Positions 39,844 to 48,079 of a DNA stretch of 51,631 nucleotides are shown piece after piece. Within the stretch, counting starts at the first letter, position 1; every line of letters starts with the position of its first letter. Origin of the DNA: a virus. Its lineage: Duplodnaviria > Caudoviricetes. The stretch lies in IMG/VR virus record IMGVR_UViG_3300030107_001538, positions 1 through 51,631 of that record. The stretch is one strand, 5' to 3'. The translations under genes were made by a program, and so were the position numbers. Below the pieces are notes generated by a model, which was given only the letters and a program-made list of their open reading frames with translations, made no database searches and was not told the DNA's origin.

Positions 39844-40215
39844 TTAACTTTCACTAGATGGTTTAACATAAGAATTTTTACTCTTGAGAAAAGAGTTAAT
39901 AAAAGTCTTGTTAAACTTTCCTGAGATTGCATCTGAAATAAGTTTAGATACTTCATTCTTCATATACTTTTTACCATTTTGCGGTATGAAAGTATCAAAG
40001 AGATGCAATGTCCAAGTACCAGATAGCCCACCAAATCGTTTACGAAAGTTTAGATAATCATTTTCAATATCTAGATTATCATGTTTATCGGTAACCGATT
40101 TCAGCAATGCATCTCTATATAAACTCATTAGATAGTTGCATTGATTAACAGTCGCTGGACTATTAGCTTTTTCGATTATACTCTCATGAGTATTTTTTGT
40201 AGTTGCTTGGGTCAT
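39844..40215 (-). CDS. Hypothetical early protein (in the left arm of the fold-back)
   Basis: 123 aa, SD AGGAGG; PATVNQ..Y motif. Confidence 0.65.
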   Translation of the reverse strand: MTQATTKNTHESIIEKANSPATVNQCNYLMSLYRDALLKSVTDKHDNLDIENDYLNFRKRFGGLSGTWTLHLFDTFIPQNGKKYMKNEVSKLISDAISGKFNKTFINSFLKSKNSYVKPSSES

Positions 40216-40815
40216 AATATGCCTCCTAGACAGATTTATTTAAATTTATAATGTACATTTCCAAGCGGGAATACACATCATCCTTTTTTCCAGAATACTT
40301 GAAACCAAGTATCCTAAAACCTTTTGCAATATATTGTTTAGCAACTTCTAGAGCTGTAGAGACATTAGTTGTTCTAACAGTATCTTGATTGCTAAATGTT
40401 ATATCTATTATCATAATCTACCTCCTTTGATAATACTATGAGGTTACCATCGGACTTTATGCATACAAGGGTTGCTTTAGCAACTTGCGAAGCCCTTGTA
40501 GGTAAATAAAGGACTATGGTGCTCTCTTATAGTATTCAAAGGAGTAAGTAGATATGGGAATAGCATATACTAGATTTAGCAATACTGTTAGAACACTTCT
40601 TGAAAGCTCTAAGAAATTGCTAAACTTGCAGAGGTACTTGGTAAGTATTCTGAAGTGATGTGTATAGTTGGGAATAAACTAGGAGGAGACCCAAGCACTA
40701 CAAAGTTGAGATATATAGTTAGGGCTAGGGTGGTCTAATTATTTGGTAGCAAGTTTAGACTTGAAAATCCTTTAAACTTTGTAAACTAGATAACTGGCTA
40801 CTAGAACTTGCCAAG
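40010..40815 (+). repeat. Long imperfect inverted repeat (fold-back) centred at ~40482
   Basis: More than 12 nested complementary blocks, e.g. 40371-40383/40582-40594, 40291-40300/40643-40652, 40271-40280/40656-40665, 40196-40213/40688-40704. Confidence 0.85.
40226..40414 (-). CDS. Hypothetical early protein (in the left arm of the fold-back)
   Basis: 62 aa, SD AAGGAGG. Confidence 0.6.
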   Translation of the reverse strand: MIIDITFSNQDTVRTTNVSTALEVAKQYIAKGFRILGFKYSGKKDDVYSRLEMYIINLNKSV

Positions 40816-41113
40816 TCTTGGGTGTGTTTTGTAGAAAAGGTACAGCTCTTGCAAGTCTGAGAAGTCTGCAGAGTTCTGCTGAGAGCTGTTTAGACTTGGC
40901 AGTTCTAGGGGGAGGCAGGAGACCACCCCACCCCACCTATATATCTATAGCATACTCATACAAAATTACAGAAACCGGGCATTAACCAGTTAGGCTTATC
41001 TGGTTTACAAATAAACCCCGAACCCGATGGATTCTTTTAACTTACTTGGGAGTTTTTGGGAGGGTTGGTTTGGGCTACATCTACTATGGTAGACCCGGGG
41101 GGGCACTAAAGTT

Positions 41114-41142
41114 ATTATAGCTTCTAAATTCTATTTTGTCAA
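41114..41142 (-). promoter_or_regulatory. Perfect consensus sigma70 promoter (leftward)
   Basis: TTGACA (41142-41137)-17 nt-TATAAT (41119-41114). Confidence 0.85.
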
Positions 41143-41147
41143 GAGGG

Positions 41148-41176
41148 TTGACAAGTTTATTTTTCGACTGTATACT
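41148..41176 (+). promoter_or_regulatory. Sigma70 promoter (rightward), likely giving leaderless terS mRNA
   Basis: TTGACA-17 nt-TATACT; ATG follows 7 nt later with no SD. Confidence 0.8.
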
Positions 41177-41183
41177 AAGTAAC

Positions 41184-41618
41184 ATGGCAATACTTCCGAG
41201 TGTAACAAACGATAACAAAAGACAATTAACCGAAAAGCAGCAATCTTTTTTGAACCACCTAGTTGAAACCCAAGGAGATGCTAAAAAGGCTGCTGAGTTA
41301 GCTGGATATACCAGTCATTATCATCATGTGGTAAAGACTTTAAAGAATGAAATCCTTGAATTAACTCAAGAGGTCTTGGCAAACTCTGCACCCAAAGCAG
41401 CTTTTAAGTTAGTTGAGATTATGGAGTCTAATCGACCTATAGTTCAAGCTAACAATAAGTTGGCTGCAGCTCAAACTCTCTTAGATAGAGTAGGAGTAAG
41501 CAAAGTAGATAAGCTAGATGTAAATCATAACGTGAGCAATGGTATCTTTTTAATGCCCGATAAAGCTCCAATTAATTTAGACAAGGAAGATTATGAAGAT
41601 ATTTCTGACGGAAATTGA
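41184..41618 (+). CDS. Terminase small subunit (putative)
   Basis: LTEKQQSFL..GDAKKAAELAGY HTH; AAQTLLDRVG; start revised from TTG 41136 to ATG 41184. Confidence 0.7.
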   Translation: MAILPSVTNDNKRQLTEKQQSFLNHLVETQGDAKKAAELAGYTSHYHHVVKTLKNEILELTQEVLANSAPKAAFKLVEIMESNRPIVQANNKLAAAQTLLDRVGVSKVDKLDVNHNVSNGIFLMPDKAPINLDKEDYEDISDGN

Positions 41619-41793
41619 AAAAGAAGGTAGAAGATATGCAGGTCCTAATATACTTGCCGAGACTTGGGAGTTAGCTCAAGAGGCTGCTCAGTTTAATAAT
41701 TTGATATTAGTTGGCGAATTTGTGGAAATAATTGCAGATGGCGATTCAATGCACTATTTAGAAAAGCATACAAAACCAAAGACTTTACATTAA
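41593..41793 (+). CDS. Hypothetical protein
   Basis: 66 aa, YAGPNI motif. Confidence 0.55.
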   Translation: MKIFLTEIEKEGRRYAGPNILAETWELAQEAAQFNNLILVGEFVEIIADGDSMHYLEKHTKPKTLH

Positions 41794-42242
41794 TGGCATA
41801 TTCTAGACAAGTAGTAGATAGGTTTGAAAGTGTTTTAAATAACCCGGACAAACATGCAGTCGGTAGGTTTGACCCTAACGACCCTAATGTGGCTACCGGT
41901 TTAACCGGAGCACCTGCTTGTGGCGATGTTATGAAGTTGCAATTAAAGTTAGCTGGTGATATTATCGAAGATGTAAAGTTTAAAACTTATGGTTGTGGTT
42001 CGGCAATAGCTTCTAGCACTATGTTTGTTGATATGTTAAAAGGTAAAACTATTACCGAAGCTAAACAAATAAAAGATGCAGATATAGCTAAAGCTCTAGA
42101 TTTACCTCCAATAAAACTACACTGTAGTGTTTTAGCCGAAGAAAGTATTACCAAAGCAATAGCAAATTGGGAAGCAAAAGTAAAACATAGACAACATAAT
42201 CAATATGGCAGCAAAGAAGAAAAAGAAAAGTACAGTAAATAA
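41793..42242 (+). CDS. iscU: Fe-S cluster scaffold IscU/NifU-N (auxiliary metabolic gene)
   Basis: GAPACGDVMKLQ, FKTYGCGSAIASS, LPPIKLHCS; all three Cys and the chaperone-binding LPPVK-like motif present. Confidence 0.93.
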   Translation: MAYSRQVVDRFESVLNNPDKHAVGRFDPNDPNVATGLTGAPACGDVMKLQLKLAGDIIEDVKFKTYGCGSAIASSTMFVDMLKGKTITEAKQIKDADIAKALDLPPIKLHCSVLAEESITKAIANWEAKVKHRQHNQYGSKEEKEKYSK

Positions 42243-42393
42243 AGCTGGTAACTATACTAAACCTACCATGCGAAAAAATCTTTTTAATAAGATTAAAGCT
42301 GGTAGCAAAGGTGGAAAGCCGGGTCAATGGTCAGCTCGTAAGGCTCAAATGTTAGCTAAACAATACAAAGCTAGAGGTGGCGGTTATAAGTAA
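42205..42393 (+). CDS. Small basic protein (DUF5872-like N-terminal part)
   Basis: GGKPGQWSARKAQ..Y...GGGY. Confidence 0.6.
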   Translation: MAAKKKKKSTVNKAGNYTKPTMRKNLFNKIKAGSKGGKPGQWSARKAQMLAKQYKARGGGYK

Positions 42394-42402
42394 TTATAAA
42401 TC

Positions 42403-42582
42403 ATGACAGATTTTATTTTACTAACAACTCTAGCTCTCTGTATTGTTGCCATGATAGGTGAAAATTCAAACCCTAGAGGTATGAATATTTTTTGGTATAA
42501 AGTTAATGTTAAAAGAAGAGCTTACTGGAAAGCTTTAACAGAATACGATTCTGGTAATAACAAAGGTAACGGACCAAGATAA
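42403..42582 (+). CDS. 59-aa membrane-anchored protein (not in ORF track)
   Basis: MTDFILLTTLALCIVAMIG...; fills the gap between neighbours. Confidence 0.55.
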   Translation: MTDFILLTTLALCIVAMIGENSNPRGMNIFWYKVNVKRRAYWKALTEYDSGNNKGNGPR

Positions 42583-42583
42583 A

Positions 42584-42883
42584 ATGGCTGACCCTAAAAA
42601 AGGTACAGGTAAAAAACCAAAAGGTTCAGGCAGACGTTTATATACTGACGAGAATCCTAGAGATACTGTTAGTATTAAATATAAAACACCAGCAGATGCT
42701 CGAGCAACTGTAGCAAAAATAAAAAGAATTAAAAAACCTTTTGCTCGTAAGATACAAATCTTAACAGTTTTAGAACAACGTGCTAAAGTAGCTGGTAAAA
42801 ATGAACAAGCTAGAATAGCTAAAAAAGGTAAAGAAGCAATTAGAAAAAAACATGGCACTCAAAAAAAGTCAAAGAAGTCTTAG
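42584..42883 (+). CDS. Small basic protein
   Basis: GRRLYTDENP..TV, K/R-rich. Confidence 0.65.
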   Translation: MADPKKGTGKKPKGSGRRLYTDENPRDTVSIKYKTPADARATVAKIKRIKKPFARKIQILTVLEQRAKVAGKNEQARIAKKGKEAIRKKHGTQKKSKKS

Positions 42884-43106
42884 AAAATGGACTAAACAAA
42901 AATGGCGAACTCCTAGCGGTAAAAAGTCTTCGGAGACTGGTGAGGTTTATGCTCCCGAAGCTAAAATTAAAAAACTTAAATCAACTGCTAAAGGTCGTAG
43001 TAAACTTGCAGCAGCAAATAAAAAGAAACGAGAAGCTACAGCTCAAGGTAAACAACATGCTCAACATGGTTTACATCGTAAAAAGAAAAAGAAAAAGAAG
43101 AAGTAA
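42852..43106 (+). CDS. Small basic protein (DUF5872-like C-terminal part)
   Basis: SQRSLRKWTKQKWRT, poly-K tail. Confidence 0.6.
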   Translation: MALKKSQRSLRKWTKQKWRTPSGKKSSETGEVYAPEAKIKKLKSTAKGRSKLAAANKKKREATAQGKQHAQHGLHRKKKKKKKK

Positions 43107-43399
43107 TGGCACACGAAAATAGAAAAAAAGCTTTACTTAAAAAGCATGGTTTAAAAGGAGTAAATAAACCTAAACGTACTCCCGGACATAAAACTAAATC
43201 ACATATGGTGTTGGCTCAAGATGGACATAATTTAAAGTTAATTCGTTTTGGTCAACAAGGAGTTCGAGGAGCAGGTAAAAATCCAAAGACTGCTAAAGAC
43301 AAAGCTCGTAAAAAAAGTTATTATGCAAGACATAATGCTCAAGATGCTAAGCCTAGTAAAATGAGTGCTAGGTATTGGTCACATAAAGTAAAATGGTAA
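43106..43399 (+). CDS. Small basic protein
   Basis: KLIRFGQQG..RKKSYYARH..SARYWS. Confidence 0.65.
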   Translation: MAHENRKKALLKKHGLKGVNKPKRTPGHKTKSHMVLAQDGHNLKLIRFGQQGVRGAGKNPKTAKDKARKKSYYARHNAQDAKPSKMSARYWSHKVKW

Positions 43400-43402
43400 A
43401 AT

Positions 43403-43498
43403 ATGGCTCAACCACTACAGAATCAACCACAACTGCTAACCGCAGAAGAATTGAAAGAATTGATTAGACAACAATCATTAGCTTGTCATAATCAGTAA
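43403..43498 (+). CDS. 31-aa peptide (not in ORF track)
   Basis: MAQPLQNQPQLLTAEELKELIRQQSLACHNQ; ends immediately before the riboswitch. Confidence 0.4.
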   Translation: MAQPLQNQPQLLTAEELKELIRQQSLACHNQ

Positions 43499-43611
43499 AT
43501 CGTTCAGCTCGTAAGAGCCGGAAGTAGATTAGAAAAGAAAACCTCCCTAGTAATAGGGGTAAGCTAAGTACTAGCAATAGGAACAGAGACCGACATCTAT
43601 CGAAGGAACGC
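43499..43611 (+). ncRNA. glnA-motif (class I glutamine riboswitch)-like RNA with expanded P3
   Basis: ATCGTTCA, P2 GCTC-GTAA-GAGC, CGGAAGTAG, closing CGAAGGAACGC; P1 CGTTC/GAACG. Confidence 0.8.
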
Positions 43612-43663
43612 AATGGGTGATGTACGAAAGTACATTTAATTTAATTGCAAACTGGAGATTAAT

Positions 43664-43780
43664 ATGTATTGCTATAGAGGTATTAGATATAATGCAAAAG
43701 ACCTTAAGAAGCAAGTCAAGAAATCTAAGAAAAGTGACACTGTTACTTATCGTGGAATAACTGGCAAACTTGCTGCTTAA
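43664..43780 (+). CDS. 38-aa twin-YRG peptide (DUF4278 / IF17-like), not in ORF track
   Basis: SD GGAG at 43654; MYCYRGIRYNAKDLKKQVKKSKKSDTVTYRGITGKLAA. Confidence 0.75.
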   Translation: MYCYRGIRYNAKDLKKQVKKSKKSDTVTYRGITGKLAA

Positions 43781-43820
43781 ACAAATTTCCTGAGTAAGAA
43801 GTTAAACTGCTCAATTTATT

Positions 43821-43973
43821 ATGCCACATGCAGGAACATTTAAAGTAAAATCAGCTCAAGTTCGTAATCGCATGGCTCGTAACAAAGCCAGAGCAAAAGC
43901 GAAAGGAGTTAGTGAACAACAATTTGCTGATAATTGGGATAAAGTTTTTGGTAAAAAAGATACAAAAAAATAA
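43821..43973 (+). CDS. 50-aa basic peptide (not in ORF track)
   Basis: MPHAGTF...FADNWDKVFGKK. Confidence 0.55.
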   Translation: MPHAGTFKVKSAQVRNRMARNKARAKAKGVSEQQFADNWDKVFGKKDTKK

Positions 43974-43975
43974 TT

Positions 43976-44248
43976 ATGAAGATGTTACCTGATGGTTATC
44001 GTAGACGTTCTTCGTCAACTATTCCTTTTGGTTACGAAGAAGATGAGTTAGTTGAAGGTTATTTAAAACCTATTGAACATGAATTAGATATTTTACGAGA
44101 AGTATCAGAAGCTATTTTTCATAAAGAAATTAGTTTAGGTATTGGAGTAGATTGGTTAGAAGCTGAAACTGGGAAAAAAATATCAAGACCGGGATTAAAA
44201 AAACACGTAGATAAAGTATATGGAAGATTGGGAAAAAAATCCACATAA
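43976..44248 (+). CDS. Hypothetical DNA-binding protein (recombinase-domain-like fragment)
   Basis: STIPFGY..L.PIE.E...SL....WL...G..ISRPGL. Confidence 0.5.
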   Translation: MKMLPDGYRRRSSSTIPFGYEEDELVEGYLKPIEHELDILREVSEAIFHKEISLGIGVDWLEAETGKKISRPGLKKHVDKVYGRLGKKST

Positions 44249-45866
44249 GTACTTGACAAACTCTCAAGGAGAGTATATACTAAACAAAGATGGTACACCT
44301 CGTAAAAAAGGTGGTAGACCTAAAAATTCTGAATTATCTGATATTCAATTAGCTTTAAGAGCTAAAAAGAAATTAGATAAAAAGAATAATAAAGTAAAAA
44401 AACTAACAAGAAGTTTAGCTAAAGTACAAAAAGAAGCTAAAGCAGAAGAAAAAGCTTTAACTTCAAATGTTCTAACTCAAGAAGACACTAAAGTTCTTCC
44501 AGATGAAATACAAGAACATTTAGATACAACTGGGTCTCATGTGGCATTTATGCCTAATGAAGGACCACAGACAGATTTTTTAGCTGCATCAGAAAAAGAT
44601 GTTCTTTATGGAGGTGCAGCCGGTGGAGGAAAAAGCTTTGCAATGCTTATCGACCCACTAAGGTATTGTCATAAGTCAGCTCATCGAGCTTTAATACTTA
44701 GAAGGTCAATGCCAGAGCTTAGAGAACTTATAGATAAATCTAGGGAATTGTATCCAAAAGCTTTTCCCGGAGCTAAGTTTAAAGAAGTAGAAAAGTTATG
44801 GAGCTTTCCTTCTGGAGCTAAAATAGAATTTGGATTTTTGGAACGAGATGCAGATGTGTATCGTTATCAAGGACAAGCCTATAGTTGGATTGGTTTTGAT
44901 GAAATAACACATTTACCAACAGAGTTTGGTTGGAACTATCTAGCATCTAGGTTAAGAACAACTGACCCAGAGCTACCAACGTATTTACGTTGTACAGCTA
45001 ACCCGGGAGGGGTAGGTGCTCAATGGGTTAAAAAAAGATACGTTGAACCTGATGAACATAATAAAAGTTTTATTGGTCATGATGGTTTAACTAGGAAGTT
45101 TATCCCAGCTCGATTGCAGGATAATCCTTTCCTAGCCGAAGACGGTGAGTATGAACGAATGTTACTTTCGTTACCTGCTGTACAAAGAAAGCAGTTATTA
45201 GAAGGTAATTGGGATATTAGTGAAGGTGCTGCTTTTGCTGAGTTTGACCCAAGTATGCATGTAATTACTCCTTTTGAAATACCGACTTGGTGGGAAAGAA
45301 TAAAAGCAGTAGACTATGGATATGCTTCAGAGAGTTGTTGCCTTTGGGCTGCAGTAGACCCTGAAGATAAGACCATCATTATATATAGAGAATTATACGA
45401 AAAAGGTCTTACAGGGGAAGCTCTAGGTAACAAGATGACAGATTTAGAAAGTAGTGAAGTTAAGTCAATAACAGGTGTATTAGATACTGCTGCTTGGTCA
45501 AGGACAGGTTATACTGGTCCTACTATTGGTGAAACCTTAATTAAACAAGGTCACAAATTAAGACGAGCTGATAAGAATCGAATAGCAGGTAAGATTCAAA
45601 TACATGAACATTTGCGACAAGACAGGAATACCGGCAGACCTAGATTGCAAATATTAAGTACATGTACGAATTTAATAAAAGAATTACAAAGTTTGCCTTT
45701 ATCACGTTCTAATTCTGAGGATGTAGATACACATTCGGCTGACCATGCATATGATGCTTTACGTTATATGATTATGAGTAGACCAAAAATGGACCATCCT
45801 TATGATAGAATGTTGAAAATTAAAACAGATATATATGAGCCATCAGATGGCACATTTGGATACTAA
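44220..45866 (+). CDS. Terminase large subunit
   Basis: PNEGPQ, Walker A YGGAAGGGKS, Walker B IGFDE, TANPGG, AVDYGY, DHAYDALRY. Confidence 0.92.
   Translation: MEDWEKNPHKYLTNSQGEYILNKDGTPRKKGGRPKNSELSDIQLALRAKKKLDKKNNKVKKLTRSLAKVQKEAKAEEKALTSNVLTQEDTKVLPDEIQEHLDTTGSHVAFMPNEGPQTDFLAASEKDVLYGGAAGGGKSFAMLIDPLRYCHKSAHRALILRRSMPELRELIDKSRELYPKAFPGAKFKEVEKLWSFPSGAKIEFGFLERDADVYRYQGQAYSWIGFDEITHLPTEFGWNYLASRLRTTDPELPTYLRCTANPGGVGAQWVKKRYVEPDEHNKSFIGHDGLTRKFIPARLQDNPFLAEDGEYERMLLSLPAVQRKQLLEGNWDISEGAAFAEFDPSMHVITPFEIPTWWERIKAVDYGYASESCCLWAAVDPEDKTIIIYRELYEKGLTGEALGNKMTDLESSEVKSITGVLDTAAWSRTGYTGPTIGETLIKQGHKLRRADKNRIAGKIQIHEHLRQDRNTGRPRLQILSTCTNLIKELQSLPLSRSNSEDVDTHSADHAYDALRYMIMSRPKMDHPYDRMLKIKTDIYEPSDGTFGY
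44253..44281 (+). promoter_or_regulatory. Internal sigma70-type promoter inside the terL 5' end
   Basis: TTGACA-17 nt-TATACT, same hexamers as the terS promoter. Confidence 0.55.
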
Positions 45867-48079
45867 TGGCAGAAAACGATAATACATTTTTAAATGCAAA
45901 TAACATCTACGAAGACGTAGAGGGTGAAGCTGGTAAAAGTATAGTACTTGAAGAAGACCAAAGAATTAATTTAGTTGGTATTATTCAAGGTCGTTTTGCT
46001 CAAGCAGAAACAGCTAGAGAAAGTGATGAAGCACGTTGGTTAAAAGCTTATGAAAACTATCGTGGTTTATATGCTAAAAATATTAAATTTAGAGAATCAG
46101 AAAAATCTAGAATATTTGTTAAAATAACTAAAACAAAAGTACTAGCAGCTTTTGGACAATTAGTAGATGTTATTTTTGGCACGGGTAAATTTCCAATAGG
46201 AATTTCAGAAACTAAATTACCTGAAGGTGATAAAGAAGATGCCTTTTTAGATATTAATAATCCTAATCCAAGTTTAGAATCAGGTGAAATACCAGATAAT
46301 ATTGGTAATAGATTAGAAGACCCAATGCAAGAAAATGTTTATGCATACGGTTATCAAGGCGATGGTCAAGTTTTAAAACCCGGTGCAACAATTGGTACGG
46401 GCATGTTTGAAAAAAGTATTGAAGAACAAGCCGATGAAGCAGGAATGCTTAAAGAAGGTTTAACTGCAGACCCTAAGATTATGGAAATTTCTCCAGCCCA
46501 AAGAGCTGCGAGAAGAATGGAAAAATTAGTACATGACCAAATTGAAGAATCAAATGGTTCTTCTGAAATTAGAAATGCATTATTAGAATCAGCATTGTTA
46601 GGTACAGGAATTGTTAAAGGACCATTTAATTTTAATAAACAATTAAATAAATGGAACTATAATGAAGATGGTGATAGAGAATATAATCCATTAGAAGTTA
46701 GAGTACCAAGAATAGAGTTTGTAAGTTGTTGGGATTTTTATCCAGACCCTGCAGCTACTAATATAGATGAATGTGAATATGTTGTACATAGACACAAAAT
46801 GAATAAAAGTCAATTAAGGCAACTACGTAATATGCCTTATTTTGATAAAAATATTATTCGTGAATGTTTGCAAGAAGGTGCAAACTATACTGAAAAAGAT
46901 TTTGAATCACAATTAAAAGATGATAATAAAAATGATTATGATTCATCAGTTAATTTTGAAGTGCTTGAATACTGGGGTATTATGGATGCTGAGTATGCAA
47001 GAGAAGTTGGAATTGATTTACCTAAATCTGTAGATGATTTAGATGAAGTACAAATTAATGCATGGGTATGCGGTGATAAATTACTTAGAGCAGTAATTAA
47101 TCCATTTACACCTTATCGTATTCCTTATAATGCATTTCCTTATGAAAGAAATCCCTATAACTTTTTTGGTATAGGTGTTGCTGAGAATATGGATGACTCG
47201 CAACAAATTATGAATGGTCATGCAAGAATGGCTATTGATAATTTAGCAATGGCAGGTTCATTAGTATTTGATGTTGATGAATCAGCTTTAGTCGGTGGTC
47301 AGAATATGGAAATCTACCCCGGAAAAATATTTAGGAGACAAGCTGGGATGCCCGGACAATCCATCTATGGATTAAAATTCCCCAACACTGCACCTGAAAA
47401 CATGATGATGTTTGATAGGTTCAGGCAACTTGCTGACGAGCAAACTGGGCTTCCCAGCTACTCTCATGGACAAACTGGAGTGCAAAGTATGACAAGAACT
47501 GCTTCTGGTATGTCAATGTTATTAGGGGCTGCTAGTTTAAATATTAAAACAGTCATTAAAAATCTTGATGACTTTTTATTAAAACCTTTAGGAGAAGCAT
47601 ACTTTCAATGGAATATGCAATTTTTTGAAGGTGAAATAGATGTAATAGGTGATTTAGAAGTAAAAGCAACTGGTACAAATAGTTTGATGCAAAAAGAAGT
47701 TAGAAGTCAAAGACTTACAATGTTCTTACAAACTGCACAAAATCCAAGTATTGCACCTTTTGTTAAAGTTTCTAAATTAGTTAGTGAACTTGCTTATAGC
47801 TTAGACTTAGACCCTGATGAAATATTAAATGACCCAGAAGAAGCAGCTATGATGGCACAAATTATAGGAATGCAAAATGTTGGACAAAACACAGGCGAGG
47901 AAACTCAACCCGATAGTGAACAATCTGGAAATATGGGAGGTGCTAGTGGAGTACCTCAAGAACCGCAAGATGTTGGAGTTACAGGCACTGGCGGTGGCAA
48001 CATCGGAACAGGAAATGTACCGGTTGCAGGGGAAGATAACTTCTCTGGTACACTTAGAGGAGCTGCCCCAGAAGGTTAA
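45866..48079 (+). CDS. Portal protein
   Basis: 737 aa after TerL; GTGIVK, WDFYPDP, FFGIGVAE, RTASGMSML; disordered tail. Confidence 0.85.
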   Translation: MAENDNTFLNANNIYEDVEGEAGKSIVLEEDQRINLVGIIQGRFAQAETARESDEARWLKAYENYRGLYAKNIKFRESEKSRIFVKITKTKVLAAFGQLVDVIFGTGKFPIGISETKLPEGDKEDAFLDINNPNPSLESGEIPDNIGNRLEDPMQENVYAYGYQGDGQVLKPGATIGTGMFEKSIEEQADEAGMLKEGLTADPKIMEISPAQRAARRMEKLVHDQIEESNGSSEIRNALLESALLGTGIVKGPFNFNKQLNKWNYNEDGDREYNPLEVRVPRIEFVSCWDFYPDPAATNIDECEYVVHRHKMNKSQLRQLRNMPYFDKNIIRECLQEGANYTEKDFESQLKDDNKNDYDSSVNFEVLEYWGIMDAEYAREVGIDLPKSVDDLDEVQINAWVCGDKLLRAVINPFTPYRIPYNAFPYERNPYNFFGIGVAENMDDSQQIMNGHARMAIDNLAMAGSLVFDVDESALVGGQNMEIYPGKIFRRQAGMPGQSIYGLKFPNTAPENMMMFDRFRQLADEQTGLPSYSHGQTGVQSMTRTASGMSMLLGAASLNIKTVIKNLDDFLLKPLGEAYFQWNMQFFEGEIDVIGDLEVKATGTNSLMQKEVRSQRLTMFLQTAQNPSIAPFVKVSKLVSELAYSLDLDPDEILNDPEEAAMMAQIIGMQNVGQNTGEETQPDSEQSGNMGGASGVPQEPQDVGVTGTGGGNIGTGNVPVAGEDNFSGTLRGAAPEG

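Follow-up and report, generated by a model that had tools for sequence, protein, structure and literature searches.

A glutamine-riboswitch-type leader with a conserved insert domain precedes a DUF4278-like peptide gene in a marine phage and in SAR86 bacteria

Glutamine riboswitches have been described mainly in the context of cyanobacterial nitrogen control. According to Klahn et al. 2018 (PMC6212724), the cyanobacterial aptamer turns on translation of the glutamine synthetase (GS) inactivating factor IF17, of which DUF4278 is a part; short DUF4278 proteins without the C-terminal GS-binding part are noted, a C just 3' of P1 either forms a long-range pair or joins a helix with the region where the ribosome binds, and glutamine riboswitches are stated to occur only in cyanobacteria and marine metagenomes. 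Weinberg 2010 (PMC2864571) likewise names cyanobacteria and marine metagenomes, and takes conservation of the peptide sequence as a hint of a regulatory mechanism. Glutamine riboswitches were later reported in the OM43 phage Melnitz and the SAR11 phage Mosig (Buchholz et al. 2022, PMC9004378), which score 52.8 and 50 bits, respectively, against the Rfam family RF01739 in our own rescoring, and RF01739 is mentioned in passing in connection with deletions of SAR86 populations (PMC12379486). Here, we describe a member of this family in an apparently complete 51,631-base IMG/VR virus record (IMGVR_UViG_3300030107_001538; this whole stretch is hereafter called the window), in which the aptamer precedes the gene of a 38-amino-acid (aa) peptide with two YRG motifs. 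In the published literature on SAR86 together with the glutamine riboswitch, DUF4278 and Gammaproteobacteria, we found no description of the long-insert domain, of the SAR86 YRG peptide, of a riboswitch in an HMO-2011-type phage or of twin-YRG peptides ending in [LIV]AA, although earlier notice in Ames and Breaker 2011 or in supplements is possible. Both in structure and in ecology, the window element is a new variant of a riboswitch-peptide system that is already known.

The locus shares with the cyanobacterial glutamine riboswitch, as described in PMC6212724, the same aptamer core at the start of a leader before a DUF4278 protein and a link to nitrogen; likewise, the C 3' of P1 lies in a helix with downstream sequence. 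It differs in that the second hairpin holds a three-way-junction domain of 70-100 nt and is followed by a platform with a hairpin of its own. Additionally, its carrier is a phage of heterotrophs, with SAR86 as the bacterial counterpart, rather than a cyanobacterium, and its peptide has 38 aa and two YRG motifs without the long C-terminal part. Like the window phage, Melnitz and Mosig carry RF01739 and infect streamlined marine heterotrophs, but unlike the window podovirus they are T4-like myoviruses with short aptamers of 49-54 nt, and the downstream open reading frames (ORFs; 33 aa in Melnitz and an annotated 51 aa in Mosig) are without YRG; the authors read control of the transfer-messenger RNA (tmRNA). 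The RF01704 system (Glutamine-II, or Downstream-peptide) of Prochlorococcus and marine Synechococcus similarly has a small DUF4278 peptide lacking the IF17 C-terminal part behind a glutamine aptamer, but its aptamer class and host range are other than those of the window, whose aptamer belongs to RF01739. Finally, the cyanobacterial factors IF7 and IF17, both small and basic, are produced in nitrogen-rich conditions, and IF17 has DUF4278 like the window peptide, a comparison made without IF7 or IF17 sequences; both act on GS, and the SAR86 genomes that carry the cassette have mostly a GSII-like enzyme as opposed to a GSI-type one.

The entire window was scanned with Infernal cmscan against all 4,227 Rfam 15 families. 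A single match exceeded its gathering score, RF01739 at 43499-43614 on the plus strand (49.4 bits, cut-off 35, E 6.8e-8; E 4.8e-10 when 43440-43800 only was rescored), and it covers the full model, positions 1-53 of 53. An earlier reading made from the sequence only had claimed a glnA-type riboswitch here and had proposed a covariance-model check; the RF01739 part of that check succeeded despite the insertion in P3, whereas RF01704 (Downstream-peptide) gave no match at E <= 10 in 43440-43800. The alignment leaves 67 bases unaligned in the loop of the second hairpin, whereas in the consensus the loop exceeds the model positions by about 2 bases; since this hairpin is thus not the short one of RF01739, the element is filed as a variant of the family, the long-insert subclass. 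The 5' core starts at 43499 with ATCGTTCA, and the 5' strand of P1 (CGUUC, 43501-43505, plus strand in the Rfam alignment, as are the other core elements) pairs with 43606-43610. P1 is nearly invariant across the 85 distinct leaders described below, with 89% of cells paired, a figure lowered by 22 misaligned SAR86 rows. The first hairpin, GCUC-GUAA-GAGC at 43507-43518, shows compensatory, two-sided changes in four of its four pairs among these leaders. One conserved core strand, CGGAAGTAG / CGGAAGUAG, lies at 43519-43527, and its invariance in alignment A2 is by construction, as it belonged to the search pattern; the other, CGAAGGAACGC at 43601-43611, holds the 3' strand of P1 (43606-10) and the invariant C43611, which by its position may be the 'linchpin' C of the solved aptamer (PMC6212724). 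Two results weigh against the assignment. A profile search of the window's own record with RF01739 scored three candidates and gave no match, which may reflect a first-look step that splits off the long insert, and single-sequence folding of the aptamer or of the whole leader was no better than that of shuffles (z -0.82 and z -0.64). Overall, at the level of sequence, 43499-43614 is confirmed as a genuine glnA-type glutamine riboswitch aptamer, and the RNA would bind L-glutamine in the manner of the cyanobacterial aptamers.

Related elements were collected in several steps. A scan of IMG/VR with the 5' half of the aptamer gave at least 120 stretches; among the matches listed, most stretches have their core strands 7-12 bases apart, with small ORFs lacking YRG behind them, and in a minority the core strands are 70-82 bases apart and a YRG ORF is located about 63 nt downstream. 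A pattern specific to the long form matched 112 viral stretches in IMG/VR, 94 of them with a full aptamer and a YRG ORF. In species-representative bacterial genomes the same pattern returned at least 120 rows, with about 190 chance matches expected in 596 Gb; a complete aptamer was present in 26 of 120 rows among the matches listed, and all 26 of these elements are in single-amplified or metagenome-assembled genomes of the SAR86 cluster or in three metagenome-assembled genomes of Gammaproteobacteria. The strict set, defined by the P1 strand, the 3' core strand and a YRG ORF, comprises 120 elements (the window, 94 viral and, among the matches listed, 25 bacterial) with 85 distinct leaders. The viral contigs fall into 47 that are T4-like, 31 that share genes with the window and 16 that are unplaced, and they represent at least two phage backbones that are unrelated to each other. 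Of 201 SAR86-order genomes, most of them incomplete, 51 contain a single copy of the class pattern. The reversed control matched 5 of the same 201, which is far above chance for 18 fixed bases, so some conserved sequence must contain it in these genomes. A blastn search of GenBank phage records with the cassette gave no match.

The inserted domain lies within the second hairpin at 43527-43601 (plus strand) and was delineated from the alignment of the 85 leaders, RNAalifold and pair counts. It consists of a P3-extension helix (43527-33 with 43596-601, one bulged U), two branching hairpins, A with a GUAA loop (43544-59) and B with a GCAA loop (43571-80), and three conserved joining strands; GNRA loops cap all four hairpins of the window leader, and the spacing between the two core strands ranges from 70 to 101 nt across the class. 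In its helices (numbers 3-5), 90.5%, 99.5% and 100% of cells are paired, and 9 of 13 pairs have two-sided changes. Over all leaders and all 33 pairs in 7 helices, 93.8% of cells are paired, compared with 78.7% in shuffles (none of 500 as high), and two-sided changes amount to 414 cells compared with 120 (none of 500 shuffles reaching the observed number). Controls in which the partners were slid by 1-3 columns gave 36-51% paired, a contrast that flatters the model, as the structure was written from the same alignment. Compensatory pairs are numerous and varied in every new helix, and RNAalifold, as an independent prediction, recovered hairpin A, hairpin B and the platform helix. No other Rfam family was found within the insert in the scan of 43440-43800, which returned noise only (E 0.15-8.9). 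The 67-nt insertion is thus, on comparative grounds, a conserved, covarying structured domain that defines the long-insert subclass, and the second hairpin is one that, by the same comparison, has grown into a conserved three-way-junction domain. The sequence-only reading was right in kind about the element and had overlooked this domain, the most distinctive trait of the element, as well as the earlier phage riboswitches (PMC9004378). In some leaders (L226, L140, L144, L152, L175, L248 and L315), hairpin B is enlarged by a nested insertion of roughly 20 nt that includes a conserved GGGUCAAU-like stretch, so the domain is still growing in those lineages.

Downstream of the aptamer, the putative expression platform forms a stem-loop at 43610-43648 (plus strand; minimum free energy -10.2 kcal/mol, z -3.71, 1 of 200 shuffles equally stable). 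Its closing helix, GCAAU/AUUGC (43610-14 with 43644-48), encloses a GAAA hairpin at 43620-35 and covaries as helix 6: one pair is C-G in 85 of 85 leaders, another is GC in 46, AU in 23 and UA in 16, and another is UA in 62 and AU in 18. The helix joins the bases just 3' of P1 to bases shortly 5' of the Shine-Dalgarno (SD) sequence GGAG (43654-43657, plus strand, 6 nt 5' of the ATG at 43664; UGGAGG or CGGAGG in the same place in other leaders) and stops 5 nt short of it. The core, the GCTC-GTAA-GAGC hairpin, the GAAA hairpin, GGAG and the ATG all lie where the earlier reading had located them. By position, C43611 and the covarying platform helix would fit the switching scheme set out by Klahn et al. 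2018. With gifB of Synechocystis as a model, glutamine binding would free the invariant C 3' of P1 from the platform helix and turn translation ON, and by this analogy the ON direction is the probable one. The thermodynamic model speaks against it: SD pairing was 0.505 in the free leader and 0.490 with the aptamer and insert helices enforced, and was lower in 39 of the 85 leaders. Because no release of the SD was obtained, gating of the SD by the platform is unexplained by the model and the ON direction is assigned by analogy. A CCUC anti-SD in the insert was considered, the insert being the main predicted SD partner in the free ensembles, and was dropped, since enforcing the comparative structure left the SD unfreed.

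The ORF behind this leader occupies 43664-43780 on the plus strand, stop included, and encodes the 38-aa twin-YRG peptide MYCYRGIRYNAKDLKKQVKKSKKSDTVTYRGITGKLAA, identified from the ORF list and Pfam. Residues 3-33 align with profile positions 4-32 of 57 in Pfam DUF4278 (PF14105) at E 6.2e-5 and 23.7 bits. This is 1.6 bits below the curated cut-off of 25.3, which counts against formal membership; however, all 84 distinct cassette peptides match DUF4278 at E <= 0.01 (best 6e-10). The window peptide, which had been proposed to be a DUF4278 YRG peptide, is therefore best regarded, from its sequence, as a short member-like relative of DUF4278 just below the formal line, and it would correspond to the N-terminus of IF17. 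Three YRG motifs are present in 65 of the 84 peptides, including all 25 bacterial copies, and two in the remaining 19, all of which are viral. The ORF shows selection at the protein level, as variants among 21 distinct coding sequences of the twin-YRG subfamily fall 27/16/46 by codon position and YRG is written in many synonymous codon sets, with AGA and CGT for Arg among them. A profile search of the PDB with the peptide family gave no match, and tblastn of GenBank phage records with the window peptide and a SAR86 peptide found none at E <= 0.1, short low-complexity queries such as these being weak.

At its free C-terminus the peptide carries a nonpolar residue and then Ala-Ala, the form of an ssrA-type degron, with the Leu-Ala-Ala codons at 43769-43777 (plus strand). 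An LAA end had been pointed out before, and the family comparison agrees with it: among the 17 twin-YRG peptides that have the N-terminus of the window peptide, 17 end in [LIV]AA. Across the family, 58 of 84 distinct peptides are Ala-terminal and 26 end otherwise (for instance, WTN, WTD, WEG, KHG or KHV). The tmRNA tag of two SAR86 genomes, GNKANYALAA, ends in ALAA, and the last three residues of the ssrA tag, both in SAR86 and in Melnitz (ANDNYVPVDYALAA), equal the LAA of the window peptide; the ssrA tag, though, is added by trans-translation, whereas the LAA tail of the window is encoded in the gene. ClpX recognises C-terminal LAA in Escherichia coli. By analogy, the encoded LAA end is plausibly readable by the proteolytic system that acts on tmRNA tags, and the [LIV]AA tail would shorten the life of the phage version through ClpXP-type proteolysis, so that its level would track glutamine.

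The conserved unit, as far as sequence comparison goes, is a promoter-like site, the leader and the peptide. The promoter-like site (TAGACA, a 16-nt spacer and TG-n-CATAAT; 43465-43492, plus strand; 10 of 12 matches in a consensus scan) would set the transcript start at about 43499, which is the first base of the aptamer. A -10 hexamer (at least 5 of 6 matches) ending 7-11 nt 5' of CGTTCA recurs among the distinct upstream regions, in 20 of 24 from SAR86 and in 22 of 53 from viruses, compared with 65 of 600 random positions. The surroundings of the unit vary. In T4-like contigs, the cassette sits after the gp23 capsid gene and a tail-tube-like gene is next; the capsid protein is most similar to those of Methylophilales phage Melnitz (67%) and Pelagibacter phage HTVC008M (64.5%). 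In relatives of the window, the genes on either side of the cassette vary, and two contigs (L179 and L230) have a terL 95% identical to that of the window and nearly identical structural genes but a triple-YRG allele. Given a promoter-like site of its own and these varied contexts, 43465-43780 would be a self-contained mobile regulatory cassette (a moron) with a host-type promoter and no part of a packaging operon, a reading to which we assign a probability of roughly 60%. RNA libraries contain matching sequences: a 151-nt contig from an oligo-dT library is identical to 43654-43804, and a 314-nt metatranscriptome contig from another study, 95% alike and ending in adapter-looking letters, spans 43474-43765 and thus the aptamer, insert, platform and most of the ORF. 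Several points weigh against the cassette reading. The consensus scan of 40200-44400, an A+T-rich region, gave 20 promoter-like sites where 12.9 are expected from shuffles, so a single site is weak; the good -10 hexamer is found in fewer than half of the viral upstream regions; and the RNA-library contigs may stem from DNA carry-over and do not show transcript ends. One relative of the window (contig L040, 2434-2620) has a short-form riboswitch with a 41-aa twin-YRG peptide without the Ala-Ala end, located between homologues of the window genes at 42205 and 42584 and thus at another insertion site.

The sequence-only reading had placed the cassette in a phage whose host does not look cyanobacterial, upstream of terL and portal, and both statements agree with our results. 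TerL is encoded at 44220-45866 and the portal protein at 45866-48079, both downstream of the cassette. The window TerL is 65-66% identical to that of the Pelagibacter podophages HTVC115P, HTVC103P and HTVC104P, 50% to that of HTVC033P and 47-50% to that of HMO-2011 and the CRP roseophages. As the TerL is nearest to those of Pelagibacter and HMO-2011-type podophages, the window phage is, by this sole hallmark protein compared, an HMO-2011-type podovirus and no cyanophage. The closest cultured relatives gave no match in an Rfam scan of the terS-terL region, and the aptamer-core pattern, short as well as long, was absent from their entire records; in a survey of HMO-2011-type phages (Qin et al. 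2022, PMC9038755), the word riboswitch appears nowhere in the text. At the start of the plus-strand block around the cassette are a gene that matches the small terminase weakly (41136) and one of the NifU/IscU-like auxiliary type (41793-42242, plus strand; phrog_8429, E 3.7e-26); several small basic proteins, the cassette, two small ORFs, terL and portal come next. Homologues of the NifU/IscU-like gene with 70-97% identity are found on window-like and T4-like cassette-bearing contigs alike. Directly upstream of the cassette is a 97-aa basic protein (43106-43399, phrog_7595), which adjoins the cassette in several relatives (L134, L142, L155 and L167) although the order of other small genes differs, and whose homologues range from 49% to 100% identity to that of the window independently of the flanks.

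The natural host is SAR86 or SAR11, at about even odds. SAR86 is the only bacterial group with the long-insert subclass among the matches listed, SAR11 genomes not having been searched directly. Leader and ORF of T4-like viral cassettes are 81-84% identical in DNA to a chromosomal SAR86 allele, a likeness that points to gene exchange with SAR86, and the IscU gene shared at 70-97% between podovirus-like and T4-like contigs was also counted toward SAR86. On the other side, the nearest cultured relatives, as judged from TerL, infect SAR11; the window TerL was found in 0 of 266 SAR86-order genomes; and identity between the window's own cassette and the closest SAR86 allele is only 59%. At 58-68% identity, the comparison of phage IscU with SAR86 IscU is uninformative, given how conserved this protein is, and no close phage IscU was found in GenBank phage records. 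The G+C contents of the window (33.4%), the SAR86 loci (34.8%) and pelagiphage loci (32.5-34.7%) do not discriminate. A more far-reaching scenario, which we offer tentatively, is that SAR86 invented the long-insert riboswitch with the YRG peptide, a small IF17-like protein that is encoded beside amtB-glnK, is governed directly by glutamine and, in these GlnE-less bacteria, replaces adenylylation-type control of ammonium assimilation, and that a guild of uncultured SAR86 phages, podoviruses and T4-like phages alike, captured the cassette and evolved a short, degron-tagged twin-YRG version overriding host nitrogen assimilation in step with glutamine. If this were true, the riboswitch subclass would double as a host marker for SAR86 viruses.

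A link to nitrogen is apparent in the bacterial loci. Among the matches listed, amtB-glnK lies within the 8-kb locus in 16 of 25 SAR86 loci and is directly adjacent in 9 of those, either convergent or immediately upstream on the same strand. The peptide would thus be a phage copy of a host nitrogen-status effector and would act at high glutamine on ammonium assimilation, through GS or the PII/AmtB pair; a target within nitrogen assimilation is probable. GS itself is a doubtful target, as short DUF4278 proteins are stated in PMC6212724 to lack the C-terminal GS-binding part of IF17, and we consider GS specifically an unlikely candidate; moreover, an IF7-like C-terminal part in the window peptide is unlikely given its length of 38 aa and the same statement. 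The enzymes present in the bacteria also weigh against GS, since a comparison of two tables shows that the 32 cassette-bearing SAR86 genomes that were also screened for GS include 23 with a GSII-like enzyme only, 7 with both types and 2 with none. A complex prediction of two copies of the SAR86 GSII-like enzyme with a SAR86 triple-YRG peptide scored 0.00 and was weighed neither way. In the SAR86 order at large, GS catalytic-domain matches are found in 98 of 101 genomes, with a GSI-like enzyme of about 470 aa in 27 of 101 and a GSII-like one of about 326 aa with both GS domains in nearly all; GlnE was found in none of the 101, with control genomes matched. This GlnE-less, GSII-like-rich set is unusual for Gammaproteobacteria.

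These data bear on other explanations of the locus. The most serious is that the peptide is controlled by glutamine yet unrelated to GS, binding instead PII (GlnK), AmtB, another nitrogen component or a phage-specific target, and that its Ala-Ala is a compact end rather than a degron. The position of the SAR86 cassette next to amtB-glnK and not glnA, the lack of GlnE and prevalence of the GSII-like enzyme, the missing GS-binding part reported in PMC6212724, and the 26 peptides that are not Ala-terminal all favour this explanation, whereas DUF4278 is so far known only as part of a GS inactivating factor, and the 17-member subfamily retains [LIV]AA without exception although position -4 varies (K, N or E); we consider it possible, though clearly not the leading explanation. 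It is unlikely, in turn, that the aptamer has acquired another function through the enlarged domain, so that it senses another ligand or a protein, or acts as an OFF switch with the peptide made at low glutamine. The insert has invariant single-stranded joiners and a three-way-junction geometry, as is typical of a functional tertiary domain, and the platform helix leaves the SD uncovered, with no SD opening in the modelling. The core strands are nonetheless intact and score over the full length of RF01739, YRG peptides follow the short-insert form in L040 and the long-insert form in the related window phage, which fits a single signal, and the chromosomal neighbourhood is nitrogen-related.

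The earlier proposal that the riboswitch tunes late-gene output within a packaging operon fares worse. In this explanation, the riboswitch governs the downstream genes (the ORFs at 43821 and 43976, terL and portal) and the YRG ORF is a cis-acting leader peptide that sets read-through. Between 43780 and terL no terminator-like site was found, so read-through into the next, co-directional genes is possible; RNA-library contigs also cover 43831-44267; and the remark on peptide conservation in Weinberg 2010 would suit such a role. Yet only the promoter-like site, leader and peptide are kept across contexts, whether the same cassette follows gp23, with a tail-tube-like gene next, or stands beside amtB-glnK; several SAR86 chromosomes have a convergent amtB next, so that nothing co-directional follows; L179 and L230 keep terL at 95% identity with another peptide allele; and the closest cultured relatives package DNA without such an element. 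Control of the packaging genes is therefore improbable, and the operon role is the part of the sequence-only interpretation that was wrong. A tie to a phage tmRNA instead of a peptide gene, as put forward for Melnitz, is close to refuted. It arose because the tmRNA that ARAGORN predicts in Melnitz (L128, 1087-1539) overlaps the aptamer (1501-1549), from which ssrA control was read (PMC9004378), but ARAGORN finds neither tmRNA nor tRNA in the window, and behind the Melnitz aptamer itself come an SD and a 33-aa ORF whose family trails many viral aptamers. In detail, the Melnitz element (L128, 1501-1670; record positions 46398-46567) continues with GGGGAGAG, an ATG and this unannotated plus-strand ORF, the annotated hypothetical gene being on the opposite strand; the ORF family follows many short-form viral aptamers. 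The published tmRNA reading of the Melnitz riboswitch may need revisiting.

If the self-contained cassette is the correct reading, the logic of a glutamine riboswitch with an inhibitor protein, which PMC6212724 ties to cyanobacteria, now extends to one of the most abundant clades of surface-ocean heterotrophs and to about 100 viral contigs. It suggests that phages of marine heterotrophs use an RNA sensor to gauge the nitrogen status of the host and respond through a short-lived effector. The long-insert subclass may also help to assign hosts to uncultured marine phages from sequence. Short-form aptamers bind glutamine with millimolar affinity. A conserved extra domain on a small, solved aptamer is a target for structural and affinity studies, and it may tune this affinity to the lower glutamine pool of an oligotroph.

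Further arrangements were seen among the viral contigs. Two glutamine aptamers in a row are present on L046 (2177-2300), L027 and L063, and the pair on L046 precedes a triple-YRG peptide. Among the contigs with short-form aptamers (L005-L124), at least four other families of small ORFs follow the aptamer, with lengths of 64-65 aa, 51 aa, about 33 aa and 44-48 aa (the last Cys-rich), all without YRG.

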